NCBI GenBank assembly: GCA_905612305.1
Contig: CAJQRK010000019.1
Coordinates: 25,811 to 89,810 of the forward strand
Source: an uncultured Flavobacteriales bacterium
GTDB taxonomy: Bacteria; Bacteroidota; Bacteroidia; Flavobacteriales; BACL11
Direction: 5' to 3'
DNA: 64,000 nt
Part shown: positions 5,270-40,565 of the stretch, in pieces
Numbering within the stretch: the first letter of the stretch is position 1
How the letters are laid out: the number at the start of each line of letters is the position of its first letter
Notes under the pieces: generated by a model
The model's database searches: none
What the model saw: the letters and a program-made list of their open reading frames with translations, nothing else
Told to the model about the DNA's origin: nothing
Made by a program: the position numbers and the translations under genes

Positions 5270-7453
5270 ATGAGGATTTCCAAAGAAACACTAAACCAAA
5301 ACCTGAAAAGTATTTTCGGATTCAATAACTTTAGAGGCGATCAGGAAGAAATAATTCTGAATCTGCTAAAAGGAAATGATAGTATGGTGATAATGCCAAC
5401 AGGTGGAGGGAAGTCGATGTGTTTTCAGCTACCTGCCCTATTATTAGATGGATGTGCAATTGTGGTTTCACCACTTATTGCCCTGATGAAAAATCAAGTA
5501 GATGTATTAAGAGGTTACCACCAGAATGAAAACATAGCCCATGTACTTAATTCCTCTTTAACTAAAACCCAAACCAATCAAGTAAAAGAAGATATCACAT
5601 CCGGAAAAACAAAACTCCTATATGTGGCGCCAGAATCATTAGTCAAAGAGGAAAATATTGCATTTTTTAAAGCAGTTAAAGTGTCCTTTTACGCTATTGA
5701 TGAAGCTCATTGTATCTCAGAATGGGGGCATGATTTTAGGCCTGAGTATCGAAAACTAAAACAAATTATTGACAATATAGGAGCAGCACCTATTATTGCA
5801 CTCACAGCTACAGCCACCCCAAAAGTAAGGCAAGATATCATAAAAAACCTCAATATAAATGACGGAAAATTGTATCTTGATTCATTCAACAGAAGTAATC
5901 TTTTTTATGAAATATGTCCAAAAAATGATGTAGCAAAACAAATCATGCAATATCTAAGTACCCGTGAAGGAGAATCAGGAATAATATATTGCCTAAGCAG
6001 AAAGAAAGTAGAAGAAATAGCGGAAATTTTACAAATAAATGGCATTAAAGCTTTGCCCTACCATGCAGGATTAGATGCTAAAAAAAGAACTGAACATCAA
6101 GAAGCTTTTTTAATGGATGACTGTAATATAATGGTAGCTACAATTGCCTTTGGGATGGGAATTGACAAACCAGATATTCGTTATGTTATACATCATGATA
6201 TTCCTAAAAGTCTTGAGGGATATTACCAAGAAACAGGAAGGGCTGGAAGAGATGGAGGAAAAGGAGATTTAATTACCTTTTATGACTATAAAGACATTGA
6301 AAAACTAGAAAAATTCTTACAAGGAAAACCTATTTCTGAACAAGAAGTAGGGCGTTTACTAATCATGGAAACCATTGCTTTTTCGGAAACCTCAATGTGC
6401 AGAAGAAAATATTTACTTCATTATTTTGGAGAGGAGTTTGATGCAGATAAGTGTGACGAAATGTGCGACAACTGCAAGAACCCTAAAGATAAAACAGAAG
6501 GAATGAACTATGTTAAACTACTGCTTGAAGGCGTGTTAACTTGTCGTGAACGATTCAAACCAAAAGAAATGGCGAAAATTATGGTAGGTGATAGCAATTC
6601 ACTTATCAATCAACATATGTCACAAATTGAAGATACGTTTGGTTCAGGAAAAGCGAAATCAATAGGGTTCTGGCATTCTATCATCCGGCAAGTATATGTA
6701 AAACAATTGCTTACTAAGGAAATAGAAAGTTATGGTGTACTGAAAATTACAGAGGCAGGAAAAGAATACCTAAAGAAACCTTATTCTTTTGAAATCACTG
6801 AAGATCATGACTATGACAGATTGAACACAAATAGTGGTGGTGAGCAAAAAGGAGAGGCAATGGATAAAGTCTTATTCAACATCCTTAAAGATTTAAGAAA
6901 GAAACTAGCTAAAGAAATTGGGTTACCTCCTGCAATATTATTTATGGAACCCTCCTTGATTGATATGGCAAATCAATATCCTATAACAATAGAAGAAATG
7001 GCGCAAGTACAAGGAGTGGGAGAGGGAAAGGCTAAAAAATACGGACAGGAATTTATTACTACGATTAAAAAATATGTTGAAGAACATGACATTGAACGCC
7101 TGCAAGATATTGTAGTTAGAACAGTAGCCAGTAAAACTTCCAACAAAATATACATAATACAATCCTTAGACAAGAAATTATGGATTGATGATATTGCAAA
7201 AGGGAAAGGACTGAGCCGTGAAGATCTACTTACTGAAATGGAAGAAATTGTAGAAAAAGGAACTCGCCTGAATTTAGAACATATTATAACAGATATGATG
7301 GATCAAGGTGAAAGAGAAGATGTACACGAATTCTTTAAGGAAACTGATGAATTTTCTTTTGATGAAGCAAGGATAGAATTTGAAGAGGAGGAATTTTCTG
7401 ATGATGAAATCAGATTATTACGCATTGACTTTATATCGAAAGTAGCGAACTAA
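5270..7453 (+). CDS. recQ: ATP-dependent DNA helicase RecQ
   Basis: Motifs MPTGGGKS, DEAHCISEWGHDFRPEY and TIAFGMGIDKPDIRYVIH, a Zn-binding CRR...C..CDNC, and HRDC-like C-terminal region(s). 727 aa. Confidence 0.95.
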   Translation: MRISKETLNQNLKSIFGFNNFRGDQEEIILNLLKGNDSMVIMPTGGGKSMCFQLPALLLDGCAIVVSPLIALMKNQVDVLRGYHQNENIAHVLNSSLTKTQTNQVKEDITSGKTKLLYVAPESLVKEENIAFFKAVKVSFYAIDEAHCISEWGHDFRPEYRKLKQIIDNIGAAPIIALTATATPKVRQDIIKNLNINDGKLYLDSFNRSNLFYEICPKNDVAKQIMQYLSTREGESGIIYCLSRKKVEEIAEILQINGIKALPYHAGLDAKKRTEHQEAFLMDDCNIMVATIAFGMGIDKPDIRYVIHHDIPKSLEGYYQETGRAGRDGGKGDLITFYDYKDIEKLEKFLQGKPISEQEVGRLLIMETIAFSETSMCRRKYLLHYFGEEFDADKCDEMCDNCKNPKDKTEGMNYVKLLLEGVLTCRERFKPKEMAKIMVGDSNSLINQHMSQIEDTFGSGKAKSIGFWHSIIRQVYVKQLLTKEIESYGVLKITEAGKEYLKKPYSFEITEDHDYDRLNTNSGGEQKGEAMDKVLFNILKDLRKKLAKEIGLPPAILFMEPSLIDMANQYPITIEEMAQVQGVGEGKAKKYGQEFITTIKKYVEEHDIERLQDIVVRTVASKTSNKIYIIQSLDKKLWIDDIAKGKGLSREDLLTEMEEIVEKGTRLNLEHIITDMMDQGEREDVHEFFKETDEFSFDEARIEFEEEEFSDDEIRLLRIDFISKVAN

Positions 7454-9664: not shown

Positions 9665-10303
9665 ATGAATATCAAATCTTTTACTTTCAATCCTTTTCAG
9701 GAAAACACTTATATTGTATATGATGAAACCAAGGAGTGCTTAATAATTGATCCAGGTTTCTATACGGATGCTGAGCGGAAAGAATTAAAAGATTTTATTG
9801 AAGAAAAAGAACTAACACCTGTAAAGCTAATCAATACACATTGCCATATTGACCATGTGCTAGGAAATAAATTCGCAAGTGAGCAGTGGGATTTAGAATT
9901 ATATATGCACAAAGAAGATTTGCCAGTGCTTGAAAAAACAGGAGAGGTTAGCAAAATGTATGAATTGGAGGGATATGAAGGCTCACCCTACCCTAAGCAC
10001 TTTTTGGCTCAAGGCGATAAGCTTACTTTTGGGGAAAGTAGTTTTAAAATCCTGTTTACTCCAGGACATGCACCTGGACATATTTGCTTATACAGTAAAG
10101 AAAATAATTTACTTATTGCTGGTGATGTTATTTTCCAAGGAAGTATAGGGCGCACTGATTTGCCATGGGGAGATCATAGCACACTTATTAATAGTATCAT
10201 TACACAGCTTTTCACTTTACCGAATGAAACACACGTGTTTTGCGGACATGGCCCCTCTACCAATTTAGGATATGAGAAGGAACATAACCCCTTCCTACAA
10301 TAA
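9665..10303 (+). CDS. MBL-fold metallo-hydrolase (glyoxalase II-like)
   Basis: Contains THCHIDH (HxHxDH), a TPGHAPGH motif and GDVIF..S.GRTD. 212 aa. Confidence 0.85.
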   Translation: MNIKSFTFNPFQENTYIVYDETKECLIIDPGFYTDAERKELKDFIEEKELTPVKLINTHCHIDHVLGNKFASEQWDLELYMHKEDLPVLEKTGEVSKMYELEGYEGSPYPKHFLAQGDKLTFGESSFKILFTPGHAPGHICLYSKENNLLIAGDVIFQGSIGRTDLPWGDHSTLINSIITQLFTLPNETHVFCGHGPSTNLGYEKEHNPFLQ

Positions 10304-10328
10304 TAGGCGCGTATGTGAAAAGGTATTA

Positions 10329-10339
10329 GGTTCGAATCC
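10329..10339 (+). other. Orphan canonical tRNA T-arm 11-mer GGTTCGAATCC (tRNA 3'-fragment-like)
   Basis: The exact T-loop consensus sits 26 nt after the MBL stop codon. I could fold only a 4-bp T-stem (tagg/ccta) and found no complementary 5' acceptor or D arm upstream. Confidence 0.35.
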
Positions 10340-10610
10340 TATATAGCTAATAAGGAACTACAGAATGAGAAAGGCTTAGATAAGTATATAGATATGATAC
10401 TAACTGAGAAAAAAAGTAATGAGTATTATTATTTTCATTGCTGTATTATTTTTTAATTGTGGCTAATAATTGGTTATGTGCAATTTTACAAAAAGTAATC
10501 GATAACCAATTTGATTTATTTACTCTTTTAATTCTTGTATTTGCCTTGGGAAGTCTAAACCAATAAAATTATTTTAAAAAATATCTGATTACTCAGAAAA
10601 TTAAAATATT

Positions 10611-10726
10611 TTCTTAAGTTTGTTTTAGTAGATTGGTTAGCGGTGGAAAAAGTGGTGCAAATTTAAGTTTAAAAGCTTGCTGTAATCATGTAAATAGAGT
10701 GTAGGTTGTAATCCTGCTACCCCAAC
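10611..10726 (+). repeat. Islet repeat copy A (promoter-like box, about 68-nt conserved leader, about 48-nt diverged core ending GGTTGTAATCCTGCTACCCCAAC)
   Basis: The first 68 nt match copy C (14376-) with 2 substitutions and 1 indel. Nt 10662-10726 match copy B (12005-12070) at roughly 75-80%. Confidence 0.85.
10615..10622 (+). promoter_or_regulatory. Candidate Bacteroidota -7 promoter element TAAGTTTG (TAnnTTTG)
   Basis: Exact match to the TAnnTTTG consensus, conserved identically in copy C, and located 165 nt upstream of the 10787 ATG. I saw no clear -33 TTTG. Confidence 0.4.
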
Positions 10727-10786
10727 TTTTTTCTGTTTTATTATGCTTAGCATAATACTTCCTTTTTTTTTACTTTTCTTTGCTTT

Positions 10787-11326
10787 ATGAAAAAACTAAT
10801 TTCACTTTTAATAACGCTAACTACATTTATAAATATGAGTTATGCTTCTTTTCCAATTGTTGATAATTTGGAAGTAAAACAAGATACAATACAAACAGAA
10901 GAAATAAAACAATATCATTATAATTTGCAAAAAATGGGTATTGATTTGCATTCTTGTAAATGTGAAAGTTGCAGGCATGGAGTTATTCCTTTGGTAAGTA
11001 AACCAAAGACTCTTCCCAAGAAAAAAGAAATTGAAATACAAAAAGAGAAAACTGAACTAAATGGCAATCAATTTGTATTTCTATCTGTATTTTCTGCGAT
11101 AGGATCGCTTTTCTTTGGTTTTTTATCATTGGGTCATGCTTTTTCTCATAATAGTTCATATTCATCGGTTTTACTTTTTTTTATACTATCTCTTATTTCA
11201 GTTGTAGGCTCCGTTATATTAGCTATAAAAGCAAAAAAACAAGGAGTTAATTGGGGTGTGTCAATGTTAGGTGTTGGAATTGCAGTCTTAGCAGTATTAT
11301 TTCTATTCCCCCTTTTTTTTGTTTGA
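10787..11326 (+). CDS. Hypothetical secreted/membrane protein (signal peptide, CxCxxC motif, 3 C-terminal TM helices)
   Basis: 179 aa. It has an N-terminal signal-like MKKLISLLITLTTFINMSYA|SFPI, an HSCKCESCRHG motif, a Lys-rich linker and then hydrophobic helices. I recognise no family. Confidence 0.6.
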   Translation: MKKLISLLITLTTFINMSYASFPIVDNLEVKQDTIQTEEIKQYHYNLQKMGIDLHSCKCESCRHGVIPLVSKPKTLPKKKEIEIQKEKTELNGNQFVFLSVFSAIGSLFFGFLSLGHAFSHNSSYSSVLLFFILSLISVVGSVILAIKAKKQGVNWGVSMLGVGIAVLAVLFLFPLFFV

Positions 11327-11370
11327 CAAAAGTTTATGTCAGAAAAATATAATTTACTAGAATAAATAAA

Positions 11371-11399
11371 AACCCACTCATTTGAGTGGGTTTCTTTTT
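11371..11399 (+). terminator. Intrinsic terminator of the 179-aa gene
   Basis: AACCCACTC (11371-79) pairs with GAGTGGGTT (11384-92) as a perfect 9-bp stem with a 4-nt loop, followed by TCTTTTT. A second small hairpin GGACC-TTAC-GGTCC lies at 11403-11416. Confidence 0.75.
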
Positions 11400-11450
11400 G
11401 GTGGACCTTACGGTCCTTATTTCGAACTTTTTTAGCAAATTATTGAATAT

Positions 11451-11476
11451 AAGGCTCTGATCTTGCTACGCCCAAT
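11451..11476 (+). repeat. Degenerate partial repeat copy D (AAGGCTCTGATCTTGCTACGCCCAAT)
   Basis: Matches about 19-20 of 25 positions of the tail of copy A (TAGGTTGTAATCCTGCTACCCCAAC) and sits just after the terminator. Confidence 0.4.
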
Positions 11477-11587
11477 AGCGTACTGTATTTATATCATTAA
11501 ATTATCTTCTATTTTCTTTTACATCAATTTTTTCAAATTTTCTGTAATAAATTCAGATTTCTAAAAAAGTTCTTTCTAATAATTGAA

Positions 11588-11734
11588 TTAATATTTATGT
11601 TTGAAGCTTTCTGGAATCTCTGGATCATTCATCATATCTCTCTCTTGTTCATTATGACCTTTAGTAACTATTAATAATAGTCCTGTTATATAAAGTGTAA
11701 ATATTATTGATCCTATGATAAACATGGAATTCAT
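11588..11734 (-). CDS. Unannotated 48-aa single-TM micro-protein (MNSMFIIGSIIFTLYITGLLLIVTKGHNEQERDMMNDPEIPESFKHKY)
   Basis: It is below the ORF-track cutoff. Its ATG overlaps the TGA of the upstream 73-aa ORF as ATGA (11731-11734), which suggests translational coupling. Confidence 0.45.
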   Translation of the reverse strand: MNSMFIIGSIIFTLYITGLLLIVTKGHNEQERDMMNDPEIPESFKHKY

Positions 11735-11952
11735 AATCTAATATTTTTATTATCACGGTTAGCTTGATGTATTGCTAGGTAGAATCCTAAAATTGAAGGC
11801 ACCCATATCCCTACAAATATTCCTTCTAATTGATTGCCGCTAAACCATAATGAAACAGAATAGAGGAAAGAGATAAATGCAAGAAAAATAGCATAATATT
11901 TTCTCCAAAAGCGTATTATTTTTTTCATTTTTATAATTGTTATTTTGTGCAA
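11731..11952 (-). CDS. Small 2-TM membrane protein (65-73 aa)
   Basis: The track start at 11952 is TTG. An ATG at 11928 (MKKIIRFWRKYY...) is the more likely start. It has two hydrophobic helices and no family I recognise. Confidence 0.5.
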   Translation of the reverse strand: MHKITIIKMKKIIRFWRKYYAIFLAFISFLYSVSLWFSGNQLEGIFVGIWVPSILGFYLAIHQANRDNKNIRL

Positions 11953-12004
11953 ATTTACTTTTTTTTATATAAACGCATAAGATTATATTAAAAAAGTTAT
12001 ACAC

Positions 12005-12070
12005 TTTAAGTTTAAAAGATTATTGTAATCTAGTGAAATAGGTGTTGGTTGTAATCCTGCTACCGCGAAT
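12005..12070 (+). repeat. Islet repeat copy B (core only; ORF-less)
   Basis: TTTAAGTTTAAAAGATTATTGTAATCTAGTGAAATAGGTGTTGGTTGTAATCCTGCTACCGCGAAT aligns along its length with the cores of copies A and C. Confidence 0.8.
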
Positions 12071-12134
12071 TAATTAAATAAAAAAACAACTCTGAATTGA
12101 GTGGGCTTTATATTTATTAGGAGATCTCTGAAGT

Positions 12135-13202
12135 CTAATTTTTAAGAGATTCAAAAATAGCAGTTAACTTATTATCATTTCTTACCACATAATCTGATTC
12201 TAATATAATTTTTTTCATATTTTCCTTACGATCCTTTGTTAATGGGTGTGAACTGATGATTTTTGGCACAGAAAATTTACTTTTTTTTTCTAATTGCTCA
12301 AATAGCTTAACCATTCCGTAGGGGTTAACATTGTTGTTAATAAGAGTTTTTAAGCCTTGTTCATCAGCTTCTTCTTCAAATTCTCTCGAATAAGAAAGGG
12401 AATGAAGTTGTTGAGCATTTTTGGCTAATAAAGACATAATTCCGTTAACGTCACTAAAAAGCAAAGAAATCATCATATAGCCTGCAAGATTTCTAGAAAG
12501 AATTTTTATTGAATGCCGGTGATAAACATGAGACGCTTCATGAGAAAGTAAAGCTACAAGTTGATCATAACTTTTCATTTCGTCTAAAATTGCAGTATAA
12601 ATAACAATTTGACCGTTAGGAAGGGCAAAGGCATTTACTTCACTTGACTTTACAACAGTAAATTCTAGAGGTTTTGTATTGCCAAAATTCAGCTCTGCGG
12701 CAAACTGTTTTAGATGTTTAGTTTTTTCGACATCTATTTTGCTTTCTTCTAGAATAGTTTCGATAACCATATTTCCAATATGGTTATCGAAACTTTCTGG
12801 TAATAAAGCGGCTGAATTTTCAGCAATTGGAGGCAAAATGTAGAGATACATTAAACAAATCGATACTAGCACACAAACTGCAACAATTGAAATCTTTGAA
12901 AAACCAAGACTTAACAGTCTTGTATGAATATCTATAGCCTTCTTTTTCTTCATCGCTTGATAAAATTTTCGTGCAAAATCTTTATCGTCAACTTTCAATA
13001 TTGCATCCAAGTAGTTTTTATTTCTTATCTCAAGTAAATTGTCATAACTTTCAACTTGTAAGTCTGACAAATACCAAATAAGCGAATCTCCATCTTCTGT
13101 TTGCAAACAGAGTTGATTTTTTGAATCATTAAATAGGATTGAAATTTGTTTTGAGGCAGAAGATAGTCCATCAAAATACCTTCCCTCAATTGTATTATTC
13201 AT
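12135..13202 (-). CDS. M48 family zinc metallopeptidase with an N-terminal cytoplasmic domain and one TM helix
   Basis: HEASH at aa 221-225 (nt 12528-12542) and a downstream SREFEEEADEQG (the M48 third-ligand region). There is a TM helix at about aa 99-125 and an N-terminal GRYFDG...domain. Confidence 0.85.
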   Translation of the reverse strand: MNNTIEGRYFDGLSSASKQISILFNDSKNQLCLQTEDGDSLIWYLSDLQVESYDNLLEIRNKNYLDAILKVDDKDFARKFYQAMKKKKAIDIHTRLLSLGFSKISIVAVCVLVSICLMYLYILPPIAENSAALLPESFDNHIGNMVIETILEESKIDVEKTKHLKQFAAELNFGNTKPLEFTVVKSSEVNAFALPNGQIVIYTAILDEMKSYDQLVALLSHEASHVYHRHSIKILSRNLAGYMMISLLFSDVNGIMSLLAKNAQQLHSLSYSREFEEEADEQGLKTLINNNVNPYGMVKLFEQLEKKSKFSVPKIISSHPLTKDRKENMKKIILESDYVVRNDNKLTAIFESLKN

Positions 13203-14174: not shown

Positions 14175-14375
14175 AATCTTATCTATTAAAAATTAGTTTT
14201 CATTTTCCTTAATCTCAGTTATAATATTTTAACTTCATATAACATGTTTATATCGATAAAGATAAAAAAGTAAATGGGAAAATCTAAAGAAAAAATAGAT
14301 TTTAATTGTAGACTTAACAATAAACTTAGATTTTTTATTTTAAAAAGTAATTTCTAATCAAAAATTTAATATAAT

Positions 14376-14489
14376 TTCTTAAGTTTGTTTTAGTAGATTG
14401 GTTAGCGGTGCAAAAGTGGTGCAAATTTTAGTTTAAAAGCTTTCTGCAATCTAGCGAAATAAGTGTTGGTTGTAATACTGCTGCTTTAC
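14376..14489 (+). repeat. Islet repeat copy C (promoter-like box, conserved leader, diverged core)
   Basis: See copy A. The core is ...CTGCAATCTAGCGAAATAAGTGTTGGTTGTAATACTGCTGCTTTAC. Confidence 0.85.
14380..14387 (+). promoter_or_regulatory. Candidate -7 promoter element TAAGTTTG
   Basis: Identical to the box in copy A and located 162 nt upstream of the 14549 ATG. Confidence 0.4.
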
Positions 14490-14548
14490 TTTTTTAATCT
14501 CACATTTTTTTATAATTTTTTATAAAAATCTGCGTTTGAAATATACTT

Positions 14549-15013: not shown

Positions 15014-16483
15014 ATGGCTCGCAAATATCTTTCCAAGTCAACATTTATCAAAGGTGTTCAGTGTGAGAAAGCTCTCTATCTTCATAGATTCAATTCTGAA
15101 TTAGCAGATGAAATATCTCAGCAGAAAGAAGCTGTATTTCAAACAGGAACTAATGTTGGAATATTAGCGCAAGAATTATTTCCTGAAGGAATAGATGCTA
15201 GCCCTAAAGATTACACTAAATATTTTGAGTCTTTCAAGTACACCCAACAATTAATCAATGAAGGAGTGGAAGTTATTTATGAAGCAGGATTTTGCTTTGA
15301 TTATGTGATGTGTTTTGTAGATATACTGGTCAAAAAAGATGGAAGATGGCATGCATATGAAGTTAAAAGCTCTACTAAAGTTTCTGAAACCTATATTATT
15401 GATGCTTCATTACAATATTATATTATGAAGAATTCAGCAATAGACATTGCTGATATATCTATTGTTCATATTGACAATAATTACGTAAGAAATGGAGAGA
15501 TTGATTTAAATCAGTTATTTCATTCAGTTTCTGTAATAAATCAAGCGCAAAATAATAATGATTATGTAAAAAATAAATTACTGGACCTTCACACTACTCT
15601 TTCTAAAGATTCAGCACCAATTGTTGATATTGGTAAGCATTGTAGTTATCCGTATACTTGTAATTTTAAAGGTTATTGCTGGAAACACATACCTCAATAC
15701 TCAATTTTTGATATTTCTCGTTTAAATAAAAAAATAAAGTGGAGCTTATATAACAGCAGATACATTGAAATTAAAGATATTCCAATAGACACTAAGCTTT
15801 CTGATAATCAAAAGATAGAAATAGATTCTTATATAAATCAAACAGAAATAATACAAAAAATTAAGATTAGAGAATTTGTTAATAGCTTATCAAGTAATAT
15901 TTATCATTTAGATTTTGAGACCTATCAATCAGCTGTACCACCATTTAATGGCCTTAAGCCATATCAGCAGATTCCTTTTCAATATTCTGCTCATTATGAG
16001 AATAATGGTACTATAGAACATTATGAGTTCTTAGCCGACCCCTCTAATGATCCTAGAGAAGCTTTTGTTAAAGCTTTAATTAACGATATGAAAAAAGATG
16101 GGGATATTCTTGTTTATAATATTGGTTTTGAAAGAGGTAGATTGAATGAACTAATAAGGATTTTTCCAAAATACCAAAGCCAGCTTGAGTCAATTATTGG
16201 TAGAATGAAGGATTTAATGATTCCATTTAAAGAAAAATGGTATTATGTTCCTGCTATGAAAGGCAGTTATTCAATTAAGTATGTTTTACCAGCGCTTGTA
16301 CCCTCTCTTTCTTATGATGATTTAGATATTAATAATGGATCTTTAGCAAGCTCCACATTTGCAAATCTTCATAATGTTAGCGATTTAGATCAAATTAAGA
16401 AAATAAGAAAACACTTACTTGAATATTGTAAGTTAGACACATTTGCAATGGTCAAGATATTAGAAGTACTAAGATCAGTTTAA
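15014..16483 (+). CDS. Dual-nuclease fusion: Cas4-like PD-(D/E)XK nuclease with a 4-Cys cluster plus a DEDDy 3'-5' exonuclease (DUF2779-like)
   Basis: D103...E116-V-K118 core. Cys residues are C17 and C210-x5-C216-x5-C222. Exonuclease motifs are ExoI LD300FE302T, ExoII YNIGFE373 and ExoIII Y471CKLD475. The N-terminus YLSKSTFIKGVQCEKALYL resembles DUF2779 as I recall it. Confidence 0.75.
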   Translation: MARKYLSKSTFIKGVQCEKALYLHRFNSELADEISQQKEAVFQTGTNVGILAQELFPEGIDASPKDYTKYFESFKYTQQLINEGVEVIYEAGFCFDYVMCFVDILVKKDGRWHAYEVKSSTKVSETYIIDASLQYYIMKNSAIDIADISIVHIDNNYVRNGEIDLNQLFHSVSVINQAQNNNDYVKNKLLDLHTTLSKDSAPIVDIGKHCSYPYTCNFKGYCWKHIPQYSIFDISRLNKKIKWSLYNSRYIEIKDIPIDTKLSDNQKIEIDSYINQTEIIQKIKIREFVNSLSSNIYHLDFETYQSAVPPFNGLKPYQQIPFQYSAHYENNGTIEHYEFLADPSNDPREAFVKALINDMKKDGDILVYNIGFERGRLNELIRIFPKYQSQLESIIGRMKDLMIPFKEKWYYVPAMKGSYSIKYVLPALVPSLSYDDLDINNGSLASSTFANLHNVSDLDQIKKIRKHLLEYCKLDTFAMVKILEVLRSV

Positions 16484-16503
16484 TTATTTTAAAAAATAAC
16501 TCA

Positions 16504-17721
16504 TTACTGTTTTCTTTTTTCATAATCCCGTATCAATAGGTAATACATAAACACCCCAAAAGCATACAAAGCAGCTGTTATGTAAAAGATATAAGCATAA
16601 GGCAAGCCCTCTGCTATTAGGTGTCTGAATATTTGCGAACTGAAAAACCAACTACCACTCCAGATTGCCGCCATAATAGCACTCAGCATCTCTTGGTTTT
16701 TCTTTCCTACATAATTCATCGTAAGCTCAGAGGTCATAGGGGCGGCCATATTCATAAGTGGAGTTCTTATCCAAAAACACAAAACTGCAAGCGGCAAAGC
16801 CCACCAATAATCTGCAAAAATCTCAGTTGTAGCCAAGGCTACCAAAGCGATAACTGCAATAGTTTGGGTGTAAGTAATTCCTTTTTTAAATCCTAACTTG
16901 TTTTTTATATTAGGCACCAACAAAGCCAAAACAGCAACAAATACACTAGAAATACCGCCAATAACAGCAAACCCTGATGAATCAACTTTAAAATTATGAT
17001 AAAAGAATAAATTGATAAACGGAATAGTTAAACCCGCCCCAACAGCAATAATAAAAGTGGGGATAATTGCTTTTATCAATAAAGCCCAATCATAGGATTT
17101 CCACTGCAAGCCTTTTTTGACGGGCACTACCACATCAACCTTTAATTTTAACAAATAGTAAACCCCTATAAAACCCAGAACAGAAATAAACAGCAATATC
17201 TTTCCTTCATCTATCCCTTTTATAAACTGTCCGGAACCAAAGATAATTATCCCGCTTAATATAGTGCCAAAACTATGTGTTGCATAGCTTAGTGAAATAG
17301 CATGTGATTGATTTTCAGCAACGGTATTGCGCATAATATACGGCAATGCACTTACCTGAAACAAAGTAAAAACTACCCCCCATAAAATAAATAACAATGG
17401 CAACAAAGAATGATGCTGATATTCGATAGCCAATATAAGTGAGATAGCAACCAAAGGAACCCCTAAACTACCAATCATAAAAAAAGGTTTAAGGGGTTTT
17501 CCTTTTATATAAAACCCCAAGGGAAACGCCAATAACATTACTGCCAAAAAACGATAGGAAATAAAATTGGCTATTTCCGGATCAGAAAAGTCTTGCTTTG
17601 ATAAATGTATATTTAAAATTAAGAAAAAAGCAGCCCCAATCAGTTGTATGAAAAACTCTGCCTTTATCATTAAAAGAAGATGTTCTTCTAATTGCAGATA
17701 CTGCTTAATAATTTTCTTCAA
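16504..17721 (-). CDS. MFS transporter
   Basis: 405 aa with about 12 TM helices in an MFS-like two-halves layout. Confidence 0.75.
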   Translation of the reverse strand: MKKIIKQYLQLEEHLLLMIKAEFFIQLIGAAFFLILNIHLSKQDFSDPEIANFISYRFLAVMLLAFPLGFYIKGKPLKPFFMIGSLGVPLVAISLILAIEYQHHSLLPLLFILWGVVFTLFQVSALPYIMRNTVAENQSHAISLSYATHSFGTILSGIIIFGSGQFIKGIDEGKILLFISVLGFIGVYYLLKLKVDVVVPVKKGLQWKSYDWALLIKAIIPTFIIAVGAGLTIPFINLFFYHNFKVDSSGFAVIGGISSVFVAVLALLVPNIKNKLGFKKGITYTQTIAVIALVALATTEIFADYWWALPLAVLCFWIRTPLMNMAAPMTSELTMNYVGKKNQEMLSAIMAAIWSGSWFFSSQIFRHLIAEGLPYAYIFYITAALYAFGVFMYYLLIRDYEKRKQ

Positions 17722-39782: not shown

Positions 39783-39824
39783 AATGATGTGCAAATTTAA
39801 ATAAATTACTTAATTTCCGCCAAT

Positions 39825-40565
39825 ATGACAAAACTACTTCACCACCTAGGACTATACTTCATTATGATGAAGAAAGTCATAAGTATTCCTGAAAAATGGA
39901 GTGTTTTCAGAAAACAGCTCGTCTTAGAGATCGAAAAAGTTGGCCTCAATTCAGTAGGTCTGGTAATTATACTTTCATTTTTTGTAGGAGCAGTAATTAG
40001 TATACAAACAGCATTCAACATGTCTAGCCCCTTACTCCCATCTTATCTTGTAGGCTTAGCTAGTCGAGATTCATTAATTCTAGAATTTTCTCCCACTATG
40101 ATTTCATTAATCTTAGCAGGCAAAGTAGGCTCAAGTATAGCCTCAGAAATAGGTAGTATGCGTGTAACTGAACAAATTGACGCCCTTGAAATCATGGGAA
40201 TTAATTCGGCTTCCTTTCTTATTTTTCCTAAAATAATTGCTGCTATTTTCTTTTTCCCCTTCCTAATAATACTGAGTATGGGTATTGGAATAATAGGTGC
40301 GTGGGTTGGAGGATTATCTGCAGATGTAGCTACTGCAGATTTTATTGGCGGATTAAAATATGAGTTCAACCCATTTTACATTACCTATGCAGTTATTAAA
40401 ACTGTCTTTTTTGCATTTATCATATCTTCTGTTTCAGCTTATTATGGCTACCATACTAAAGGTGGTGCAATAGCAGTTGGAAAATCGAGCACTACAGCTG
40501 TTGTATCAAGTAGTATTTTAATACTACTATTTAACTATTTATTAACCGACATAATATTATCATGA
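39825..40565 (+). CDS. mlaE: MlaE-family ABC transporter permease
   Basis: 246 aa. The motif EIGSMRVTEQIDALEIMG is typical of MlaE/Ttg2B permeases. Confidence 0.85.
   Translation: MTKLLHHLGLYFIMMKKVISIPEKWSVFRKQLVLEIEKVGLNSVGLVIILSFFVGAVISIQTAFNMSSPLLPSYLVGLASRDSLILEFSPTMISLILAGKVGSSIASEIGSMRVTEQIDALEIMGINSASFLIFPKIIAAIFFFPFLIILSMGIGIIGAWVGGLSADVATADFIGGLKYEFNPFYITYAVIKTVFFAFIISSVSAYYGYHTKGGAIAVGKSSTTAVVSSSILILLFNYLLTDIILS

Follow-up and report, generated by a model that had tools for sequence, protein, structure and literature searches.

Copy B and its terminator-like flank

The stretch of DNA analyzed in this study (the window; 64,000 nucleotides, nt, from an uncultured Flavobacteriales bacterium) is AT-rich, with a G+C content of 33%, and contains three copies of a repeat of about 170 nt, which is referred to here as the leader. 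The three copies were named A, B and C and are all on the + strand; all coordinates given without a contig are positions within the window. Copies A and C are of full length and 83% identical to each other, and copy B, the subject of this study, is partial. Copy B is followed by a decayed copy of a terminator module, named FLANK3, whose intact copy follows a gene for a protein of 179 amino acid residues (aa) downstream of copy A. The locations of these features and of the neighboring open reading frames (ORFs) are given in Table 1.

Table 1. Leader copies, terminator modules and neighboring features of the window (TM, transmembrane).
Feature	Position	Strand	Remarks
Leader copy B	11991-12070	+	5'-truncated; last ~80 of ~170 nt retained
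tRNA-Pro-like core of copy B, GGTTGTAATCCTGCTACC	12047-12064	+	intact
Possible relic of the extreme 5' end of the leader, TAAACGCATAAGATTATATTAAAAAA	11970-11995	+	85% identical to 10556-10581 at copy A; weak match, E 0.033
Decayed FLANK3 copy after copy B	12071-12146	+	A-rich lead-in, broken hairpin, decayed second hairpin/tail
Broken hairpin of the copy B flank, CAACTCTGAATTGAGTGGG	about 12087-12105
Decayed second hairpin/tail, GGAGATCTCTGAAGTCTAATTTTTAAG	12120-12146		overlapping with the stop codon of the M48 gene
11-mer, reverse complement TAAATTTGCAC	11947-11957	-	holds a sigma-A -7 box, TAAATTTG, 11957 to 11950
Small membrane-protein ORF, 65 aa from ATG	11731-11928	-	on the far side of copy B
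M48 peptidase gene	12135-13202	-	convergent with copy B; stop codon 12135-12137
Leader copy A	10567-10737	+	full length
-7-like box of leader A, TAAGTTTG	10615-10622	+
Paired repeat of leader A, GCGGTGGAAAAAGTGGTGCAAA
tRNA-Pro-like core of leader A	10704-10728	+
179-aa ORF of module A	10787-11326	+	signal peptide, ...YASFPI, then TM helices
Intact terminator module FLANK3	11358-11473	+	after the 179-aa gene
First FLANK3 hairpin	11370-11393		bidirectional
Second FLANK3 hairpin, GGACCTTACGGTCC	11403-11416		followed by tail TTATTTCGAACTTTTTTAG
Degenerate core-like remnant, TAAGGCTCTGATCTTGCTACGCCC	11445-11473		after the intact terminator module
Leader copy C	14335-14502	+	full length, core diverged; upstream of the 154-aa ORF and the DUF2779/Cas4-like ORF
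Leader stub, first ~27 nt	16482-16508	+	begins at the stop codon of the DUF2779/Cas4-like ORF

The initial annotation, which was made from the sequence alone, placed a leader core at copy B, and this assignment was confirmed. In a BLAST search, positions 11991-12071 were 81% identical to copy A over 83 nt (E 1e-13); in a separate alignment, 12005-12071 was 79% identical to 10662-10728 of copy A over 67 nt. A hidden Markov model (HMM) built from full leader copies matched 12004-12070 (E 4e-15). The 18-mer GGTTGTAATCCTGCTACC is identical in copies A and B, for which 0.04 matches are expected by chance. In the window, the 5' half of copy B is missing, with a synteny break near 11991, and its arm repeat is mutated to GTTATACAC. 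The rearrangement at copy B is a truncation or an internal deletion of the leader at about 11991. If the match at 11970-11995 is real, it hints at an internally deleted leader rather than a simple truncation. The + strand between 12070 and the M48 stop codon at 12135 contains no ORF of at least 40 aa, in agreement with the annotated absence of an ORF after copy B.

An insertion of 47 nt upstream of the copy B core had also been proposed, because the 11-mer GTGCAAATTTA, which is part of leader A at 10655, reappears at 11947. Both occurrences are real, but the 11-mer is poor evidence for an insertion. Copy B carries its own, diverged counterpart of this leader segment, AAAAAGTTATACACTTTAAG at 11991-12010, which is contiguous with its core; a third exact copy of the 11-mer is found at an unrelated, intergenic site, 39789-39799, before an ORF at 39825; and an 11-mer of leader A is also present in 1.8% of random 150-nt windows. 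The insertion was rejected on these grounds. There are three TAAATTTGCA sites in the window, each of which is the 11-mer. Read as its reverse complement, the 11-mer is TAAATTTG with CAC behind it and thereby matches the flavobacterial sigma-A -7 box perfectly. The flavobacterial TAnnTTTG box is located at -12 to -5 (PMC9723704), from which a transcription start is predicted near 11945, 17 nt before the minus-strand ATG at 11928. The 11-mer at 11947 is therefore best explained as a putative -7 promoter box of the neighboring minus-strand gene.

The sequence following the core was described by the initial annotation as related to the terminator flank of the 179-aa gene, but with a broken stem. 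The stem is indeed broken: the predicted folding energies are -5.2 and -4.7 kcal/mol for copy B on the + and - strands, respectively, compared with -15.5 and -17.7 kcal/mol for the hairpin downstream of copy A. When scanned for intrinsic terminators, defined by a G+C-rich stem followed by a T run, the A copy was called on both strands and the B hairpin, which lies just downstream of the M48 stop codon, was not called. Taken alone, the relationship of the two flanks is marginal, as only 29 nt could be aligned at 72% identity, and an HMM of the flank module built without the window sequences matched 12075-12109 with an E value of 0.01 (12.9 bits), about equal to its match with an unrelated terminator at 118-158 (E 0.021). 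In its context, however, the relationship holds. Over 12071-12146, copy B is collinear with nine other leader-to-terminator junctions, including the end of an integrase element in contig L142, with 65% identity to the majority sequence. The related sequence was annotated as 12073-12109; the string quoted for it starts at 12074 and the homology reaches 12146. A search of Rfam with E values up to 10 over 10200-12300 returned only generic terminator-type matches, all on 11340-11460.

Contigs of related bacteria were also compared at the copy B site. From 14482 to 11991, the window and the sister contig L159 share 93% identity, and their M48 proteins are 91% identical. At the position of copy B, L159 has a full-length leader followed by CTTTTTTCTCTTTGTATTTTGGTAGACCTCTCGGACCTAATTTTTAAG without any ORF, and the second half of the terminator module is recognizable there. 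Past the leader, L159 contains a different gene, and the 65-aa membrane-protein ORF is absent beside it. In L160-L163, with a protein identity of 78%, only a decayed trace of the core was found at this site, which is ORF-free as well. Copy B is old and has been ORF-free throughout its sampled history. The initial annotation had interpreted copy B as an empty cassette from which an ORF was lost, an interpretation that the relatives do not bear out. Moreover, the same leader-to-terminator junction recurs in 11 of 258 leaders, always at identical positions of both modules. Many of these composites share a derived core ending without a T-run (ACCACGAC or ACACAAC; ACCGCGAA in copy B), and those of L142 and L097 are among the ones retaining CCCCGAC. 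Given the fixed junction and the shared derived ending, the composite looks inherited or copied as a unit rather than produced by repeated loss of ORFs.

The leader family and its tRNA-Pro-like core

An exact-pattern scan for the leader core in one genome per species identified 38 loci, including those of about 25 metagenome-assembled genomes (MAGs) of uncultured marine Flavobacteriales, several of which contained more than one match. The other loci were from scattered G+C-rich genomes, and their number was about what we estimate to arise by chance for an 18-base pattern. A pattern for the 5' half, or arm, of the leader matched at least 120 marine metagenome contigs. Neither pattern had any match in viral contigs. 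In 144 loci with a total length of 740 kb, at least 297 leader copies were identified with nhmmer, of which 174 are full, 36 are internally 5'-truncated like copy B and 11 are 3'-truncated. The copies are organized in same-strand arrays with a spacing of 0.5-2 kb, such as the five in L001 and the four in L017. Many metagenome contigs start or end inside a leader (e.g., L045, L046, L054, and L085). Because contigs break inside this repeat, short-read assemblies of these Flavobacteriales are fragmented.

In the arrays, leaders often lie between single genes. Of the full leaders, 57% start no more than 30 nt from the stop codon of an upstream ORF on the same strand and 61% have an ATG within 100 nt downstream, most often at 40-59 nt. 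The genes between leaders mostly encode secreted proteins with C-terminal tails of the T9SS (type IX secretion system) type, such as leucine-rich repeat proteins, a GH18 chitinase and esterases. Unrelated genes are also found among them. For instance, a type I restriction system with HsdR- and HsdS-like proteins ends directly at a leader inside the array of L037 (4224-7662), and the leader cargo thus includes defense genes. Genes following a leader or a tRNA-Pro gene often possess a TAnnTTTG box that ends 4-5 nt before their ATG (L003, L010, L014, L017, L020, L024, and others; 10770-10789 in the window). From the position of this box, leaderless or near-leaderless mRNAs are predicted for these genes. 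Such mRNAs make up about 5.5% in Flavobacterium psychrophilum (PMC9723704).

Within the first ~140 nt of the leader are a -7-type promoter box, which is conserved, and a pair of direct repeats (GCGGTGCAA, 3 nt, GYGGWGCAA). Almost no variation is seen in the -7 box, and conservation within the leader is highest in the ~107 nt that follow it. Within the 5' half, the paired repeat GGTGCAA...GGTGCAA is the best-conserved portion. Two leader subtypes were distinguished, with strong linkage along the leader and about 8% mosaics. Both subtypes have a minimal ORF at the same spot (10688-10700 and 12031-12042), ATG TAA in one and GTG AAA TAA in the other, which may be a coincidence.

The last ~25 nt of the leader copy the 3' end of tRNA-Pro(TGG), comprising its T arm, acceptor strand and discriminator. 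The tRNA-Pro gene ends with GCAGGTTCGAATCCTGCTACCCCGAC and the leader with GT(A/T)GGTTGTAATCCTGCTACCCCGAC, both of which are followed by the same T-run and proximal promoter. The leader core and tRNA-Pro(TGG) match at 21 of 23 positions, and the nhmmer model of the leader matches the tRNA 3' ends with its positions 138-177. In L010, a genuine tRNA-Pro(TGG) gene, which ends with ...GCAGGTTCGAATCCTGCTACCCCGA, is followed by CTTTTTTCTCTTTATATTGTCCCATAAATTTTCTGTAAGTTTG, a secreted-protein gene, a leader, a gene, a second leader and another gene. As both the tRNA end and its downstream context in L010 match those of the leader, the leader core is a copy of the T arm and acceptor strand of tRNA-Pro. 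The 15 tRNA genes in the leader loci include five for tRNA-Pro(TGG). Of these, four have a gene immediately after them and next a leader (L072) or a leader array (L010, L013, and L052), and the fifth is followed by an integrase element. All contexts diverge right after CCCCGAC, be it into a gene, an integrase element or the terminator module. The possibility that the whole leader is a degenerate tRNA-Pro gene was also considered, as GGTTAGCGGTGC resembles GGGTATAGCGTAGC by eye. It was rejected and stays a hint, since only the last ~40 nt were aligned by nhmmer and no tRNA-like fold was found in Rfam.

The terminator module FLANK3 was found in 66 copies in the leader loci. It is often located upstream of a -7 box and an ATG, and in 5 of 33 cases a short tRNA-like core comes next. 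At the position of the degenerate remnant at 11445-11473, L059 and L152 have a clean tRNA-Pro-type core, GGTTCGAATCCTGCTACCCCGAC, and L003 has GGTTCTAATCC with a hybrid loop. The cores after FLANK3 suggest a second type of arm joined to the same core. The GGACC-loop-GGTCC hairpin of the module (11403-11416; 2146-2159 of L001 and 5851-5838 of L160) varies to GGGCC/GGTCC and GGATC/GGTCC, and these variants keep a G-U-compatible pairing on the + strand. In L160, the first hairpin is swapped for an unrelated one, with the second hairpin part kept.

Integrases, exchange at leaders and rival explanations

No recombinase gene had been visible to the initial annotation in the window, and a search for tyrosine recombinases detected none there. 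The probe was a XerD sequence, and tyrosine recombinases were the only class covered by the search. Among the 633 ORFs of the leader loci, however, the same search identified three. One is a housekeeping-type Xer protein, and the other two possess the domains Arm-DNA-bind_5, Phage_int_SAM_5 and Phage_integrase. A candidate for a linked recombinase elsewhere, as the initial annotation had suggested looking for, was found in the form of these arm-domain integrases, whose genes are located directly after a tRNA-Pro gene or a leader. In L142, the integrase gene (5658-6848) starts 330 nt after tRNA-Pro and is followed by two genes and a leader (10841-10998). This leader starts 5 nt after a T9SS cargo gene and contains the next downstream core of the tRNA-Pro type, which we read as the probable end of the integrase element; behind the leader comes TTAATAAATAAAAGCCCACTTGATGTAGTGGG..., the terminator module. 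The integrase arm of L142 is also found in L151, after a diverged leader, and a different integrase gene directly follows a full leader in L027. Outside leaders, the paired GGTGCAA occurs only twice in ~700 kb, namely in the integrase-proximal arms of L142 and L151. This arrangement is that of an attachment (att) site with arm-type sites on its two arms, and both integrases possess an Arm-DNA-bind_5 domain.

The initial annotation also proposed that ORFs are swapped between conserved flanks, and suggested a synteny comparison to find alternative ORFs at the same flanks. As a general statement, this proposal is supported by our comparisons, in which leaders were found to be synteny breakpoints. 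When leaders on different contigs had orthologous left flanks, the right flanks were unrelated in seven of eight pairs, and the reverse comparison also gave seven of eight. Between L010 and L013, identity is 99.3% over the region that extends from tRNA-Pro to the end of the third leader, past which the two are unrelated. A unit with the ORF141 gene lies behind different genes in L010 and L037. Furthermore, at an orthologous site with a common left flank, the leader is followed by an ORF in L095 and by the terminator module in L017. In right-orthologous pairs with a flank identity of at least 98%, the two leaders no longer differ beyond positions 139-155 of 165, at the start of the T arm. Exchange points at the T arm were found in four high-identity pairs and mid-leader in others. 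We read this exchange as a mixture of core-specific and ordinary homologous recombination. With the assembly caveat given below, the comparisons support an exchange of the units between leaders, that is, cassette turnover in general.

Given the adjacency of integrase genes and the GGTGCAA repeats shared with integrase-proximal arms, the leader is read as an att site of the attR type, consisting of arm and core. It would serve tyrosine-integrase elements and small units that insert at tRNA-Pro, with the integrase presumably binding the arm repeats and recombining at the core. Each insertion would leave a copy of the repeat, giving rise to arrays of tRNA-Pro, gene, repeat, gene and repeat. Any copy could then receive secondary insertions and also take part in homologous recombination, by which genes would be reassorted between copies, and single-gene units would be mobilized in trans. 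Copy B, between two minus-strand genes, has lost its arm repeats and its hairpin. Since the same module follows the repeat at the same junction in other genomes, including the end of an integrase element, we consider it rather likely that copy B and its flank are a decayed tRNA-Pro-derived att-site repeat and an old end-of-element junction. Copy B is probably inert and would no longer function. A wider model, which we propose tentatively and regard as possible rather than probable, is that of an integron-like cassette system in abundant uncultured marine Flavobacteriales, based on a classical arm-binding tyrosine integrase and a tRNA-Pro-derived site. In such a system, single-gene units, mostly for T9SS-secreted proteins but also for defense, each ending in a 170-bp arm-and-core site with an outward promoter, would be captured at tRNA-Pro or an earlier site and reshuffled by an integrase acting in trans and by homologous recombination, so that the secreted repertoire would vary among strains.

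Several results weigh against reading the leader as an att site. The T-loop of the leader is TTGTAAT and that of the tRNA is TTCGAAT. In left-orthologous pairs, leader differences begin mid-leader, at 73-133, which fits homologous recombination and not a single site-specific crossover. The probe described above detected only three tyrosine recombinases in 740 kb, and the window yielded none. No terminal exact overlap suggesting a circular cassette was found among the short contigs, viral contigs lacked both patterns as noted, and the sampled loci contained no unoccupied tRNA-Pro with the terminator module behind it; this module, which might be the native flank of the tRNA gene, also occurs between ordinary genes. 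In addition, assemblers may join sequences falsely at repeats, which would inflate the flank discordance and mimic both patterns of exchange. Against such mis-joins, the stretches that are exactly shared are short, and L159 is a contig assembled at k=141. Several loci are from one contig of 1.06 Mb, which is presumably a long-read assembly and itself contains a 1.6-kb duplication starting at a leader. Finally, the conserved -7 box, the very conserved would-be transcript and the G-U-compatible variation leave room for an RNA function.

In this explanation, the leader would combine a promoter with a non-coding RNA of tRNA origin, which would start at AGTAGATTGG, be driven by the TAAGTTTG box and act as a small RNA or as a 5' leader/processing signal. 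The leader and the terminator together would be a stand-alone small-RNA gene, of which copy B would be a pseudogene, and integrases would merely exploit the core. Besides the established position of the flavobacterial -7 box (PMC9723704) and the conservation of the ~107 nt downstream of it, the strong terminator directly after the leader in 11 loci is consistent with such a gene. The predicted helices pair in 85-100% of copies, with switches from G-U to A-U or C-G. However, a two-sided change was found in none of the 25 predicted pairs among 164 distinct copies, as the variation consists of one-sided transitions, and the RNAalifold consensus likewise had weak energies and one-sided changes only. 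Folding energies were not better than those of shuffled sequences (z about +1.5 to -2.7), and Rfam had no match on the leader, either for the whole window at gathering thresholds or for 10200-12300 at E values up to 10. The paired repeat in the integrase-proximal arms is unexplained by an RNA role, and many downstream genes have their own -7 box, positioned for leaderless mRNAs. An RNA function as the explanation of the leader is therefore considered unlikely.

Even less support remains for copy B as a truly emptied cassette, in which recombination of flanking repeats removed an ORF between core and terminator. Units do reassort at leaders, and at the orthologous site of L095 and L017 both a leader before an ORF and a leader before the terminator occur. 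But L159 and L160-L163 share the ORF-free state, the core endings that many composites share fit a sub-lineage copied as a unit, and the same junction is the far end of an integrase-bearing element. We regard this explanation as improbable. It is very improbable that leaders are selfish or neutral dispersed repeats, similar to miniature inverted-repeat transposable elements, repetitive extragenic palindromes or bacterial interspersed mosaic elements, which spread by homologous recombination and gene conversion only. Mid-leader exchange points, the two linked subtypes with ~8% mosaics and the many contigs that break at leaders are in favor of such repeats. The leader ends, TTATTTTAAAAAATA... 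and ...CCCCGAC, are, however, not inverted copies of each other, and no target duplication was noted at the boundaries read, in both cases by eye and not by a formal scan. Moreover, both ends and the orientation relative to neighboring genes are fixed, the repeat stops precisely where tRNA-Pro has its 3' end, arrays begin at tRNA-Pro, and integrase genes abut the core and share the arm motif. A chance likeness of the copy B flank to the terminator of copy A, owing to the AT-rich background or generic terminator features, is allowed by the HMM score of the hairpin part and yet hardly credible, because it is contradicted by 76 nt of collinearity with nine junctions from other genomes at an equal position relative to the core and by the module's second half, which can be recognized at this site in L159.

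Neighboring features, known systems and implications

In addition to copy B, several features of the window are connected with leaders. The first ~70 nt of the 179-aa ORF are conserved at the nucleotide level jointly with the leader in many loci. The conserved block (10561-10858; L012, L017, L092, L095, L148, and others) comprises the leader, the palindrome TTATGCTTAGCATAA at 10741-10755 and the ORF start. The latter covers the first ~24 codons, from the signal peptide to YASFPI, and the remainder of the ORF is variable in length and sequence. Further downstream, the stub at 16482-16508 is interrupted by a convergent gene. The stub begins where the DUF2779 ORF stops, and the 154-aa and DUF2779 ORFs thus form a unit between leader C and the stub. 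No tRNA or tmRNA gene was found in the window with ARAGORN. A fragment similar to a tRNA 3' end, with a canonical T-loop (GTATTAGGTTCGAATCCTATATAGC), is present at 10313-10350, just past the stop codon of a metallo-beta-lactamase-fold (MBL) hydrolase gene and ~220 nt upstream of leader A. It resembles the T arm of tRNA-Pro, with a different stem and acceptor, and may be a scar of another tRNA-targeting element. Exact-protein look-ups of the MBL hydrolase and the 179-aa protein returned no record.

Our literature searches found no earlier description of the 170-bp leader repeat, nor of any flavobacterial intergenic repeat or T9SS-linked repeat. The closest parallel is with the tycheposons and tRNA islands of Prochlorococcus, in which neighboring tyrosine-recombinase elements at tRNA genes are separated only by partial tRNA copies (bioRxiv 10.1101/2020.12.28.424599). 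In both cases, the hosts are marine and streamlined, older arrivals are pushed outward by newer ones, degraded remnants and additional partial tRNAs are scattered over the islands and integrase elements are rare relative to scars. Different from the Prochlorococcus islands, however, the scar described here is a unit of ~170 bp with a long conserved arm and not a partial tRNA of ~40 nt. In many cases a unit is just one gene of 0.5-2 kb, mostly for a T9SS-secreted protein, copies are also scattered at a distance from the tRNA gene, as in the window, and the integrases are of the Bacteroidota type with Arm-DNA-bind_5 in a different host phylum. Similar to the tandem ssrA islands of Dehalococcoides (PMC3146451) and the accretion of integrase-less cis-mobilizable elements next to integrative and conjugative or mobilizable elements (reviewed in PMC5704250), the leader loci are consistent with repeated insertion at one small-RNA gene with direct repeats of its 3' end, and with integrase-less units that are flanked by att sites and movable by a related element. 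The units of those systems are kilobases long with few repeats per genome, whereas tens of repeats per genome, many single-gene units and a promoter-like box in each repeat are found here.

The leader arrays also resemble integrons in their same-orientation units of mostly one gene, in a recombination-site-like repeat that ends each unit and starts at the stop codon, in reassortment among strains and in a recombinase outside the unit. Unlike in integrons, the leader is, by our reading without a scan, no imperfect palindrome; its single-strand folding with RNA parameters is weak (z near 0), and the 3' end of a tRNA makes up its core. IntI is not among the linked integrases, no platform of integrase, attI and Pc is located beside the arrays, and the units have their own promoters. 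An integron proper was therefore rejected, as the arrays start at tRNA-Pro without a recombinase within 4 kb upstream and the integrases are of the Arm-DNA-bind_5/SAM_5 type. Within the same phylum, the rAID-1 clusters of Bacteroidales are arrays of small genes, including immunity genes, with repetitive intergenic sequences, which were likened to integrons, and a conserved XerD-family recombinase at their head (bioRxiv 10.1101/471110). The leader loci are similar to them in their arrays of small genes, repetitive intergenic sequence and association with a tyrosine recombinase. Compared by description, they differ in that no recombinase heads the arrays and in their cargo, which is mostly T9SS-secreted and includes a type I restriction-modification system.

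The tyrosine integrases of the NBU1, NBU2 and CTnDOT-type elements of Bacteroidota bind arms through a domain at their N terminus, rely on att sites that include arm-type repeats, target tRNA 3' ends (tRNA-Leu for NBU1 and tRNA-Ser for NBU2), and tolerate mismatches in the crossover region. We assume that such a tolerance could explain the different T-loops of the leader and tRNA-Pro. The likeness is by description, and those elements are single insertions of 10-65 kb instead of arrays of small units. The leader system differs from the known systems in that each unit retains a long conserved arm, units are small and comprise single genes, the cargo is of the T9SS kind, copies are dispersed from the tRNA gene and the host lineage is another.

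Copy B itself has no evident present function. The leader repeats break short-read assemblies of these organisms and may confuse them. If the proposed att-site reading is correct, the 170-bp repeat would provide a simple sequence tag for the flexible genome in fragmented metagenomes, and the repeats would mark gain, loss and reshuffling of genes in marine Flavobacteriales for secreted and surface proteins, with which these bacteria attach to particles and algal polymers and degrade them. It would also extend the logic of the Prochlorococcus tRNA islands to another major ocean lineage, in a more modular and almost integron-like form.

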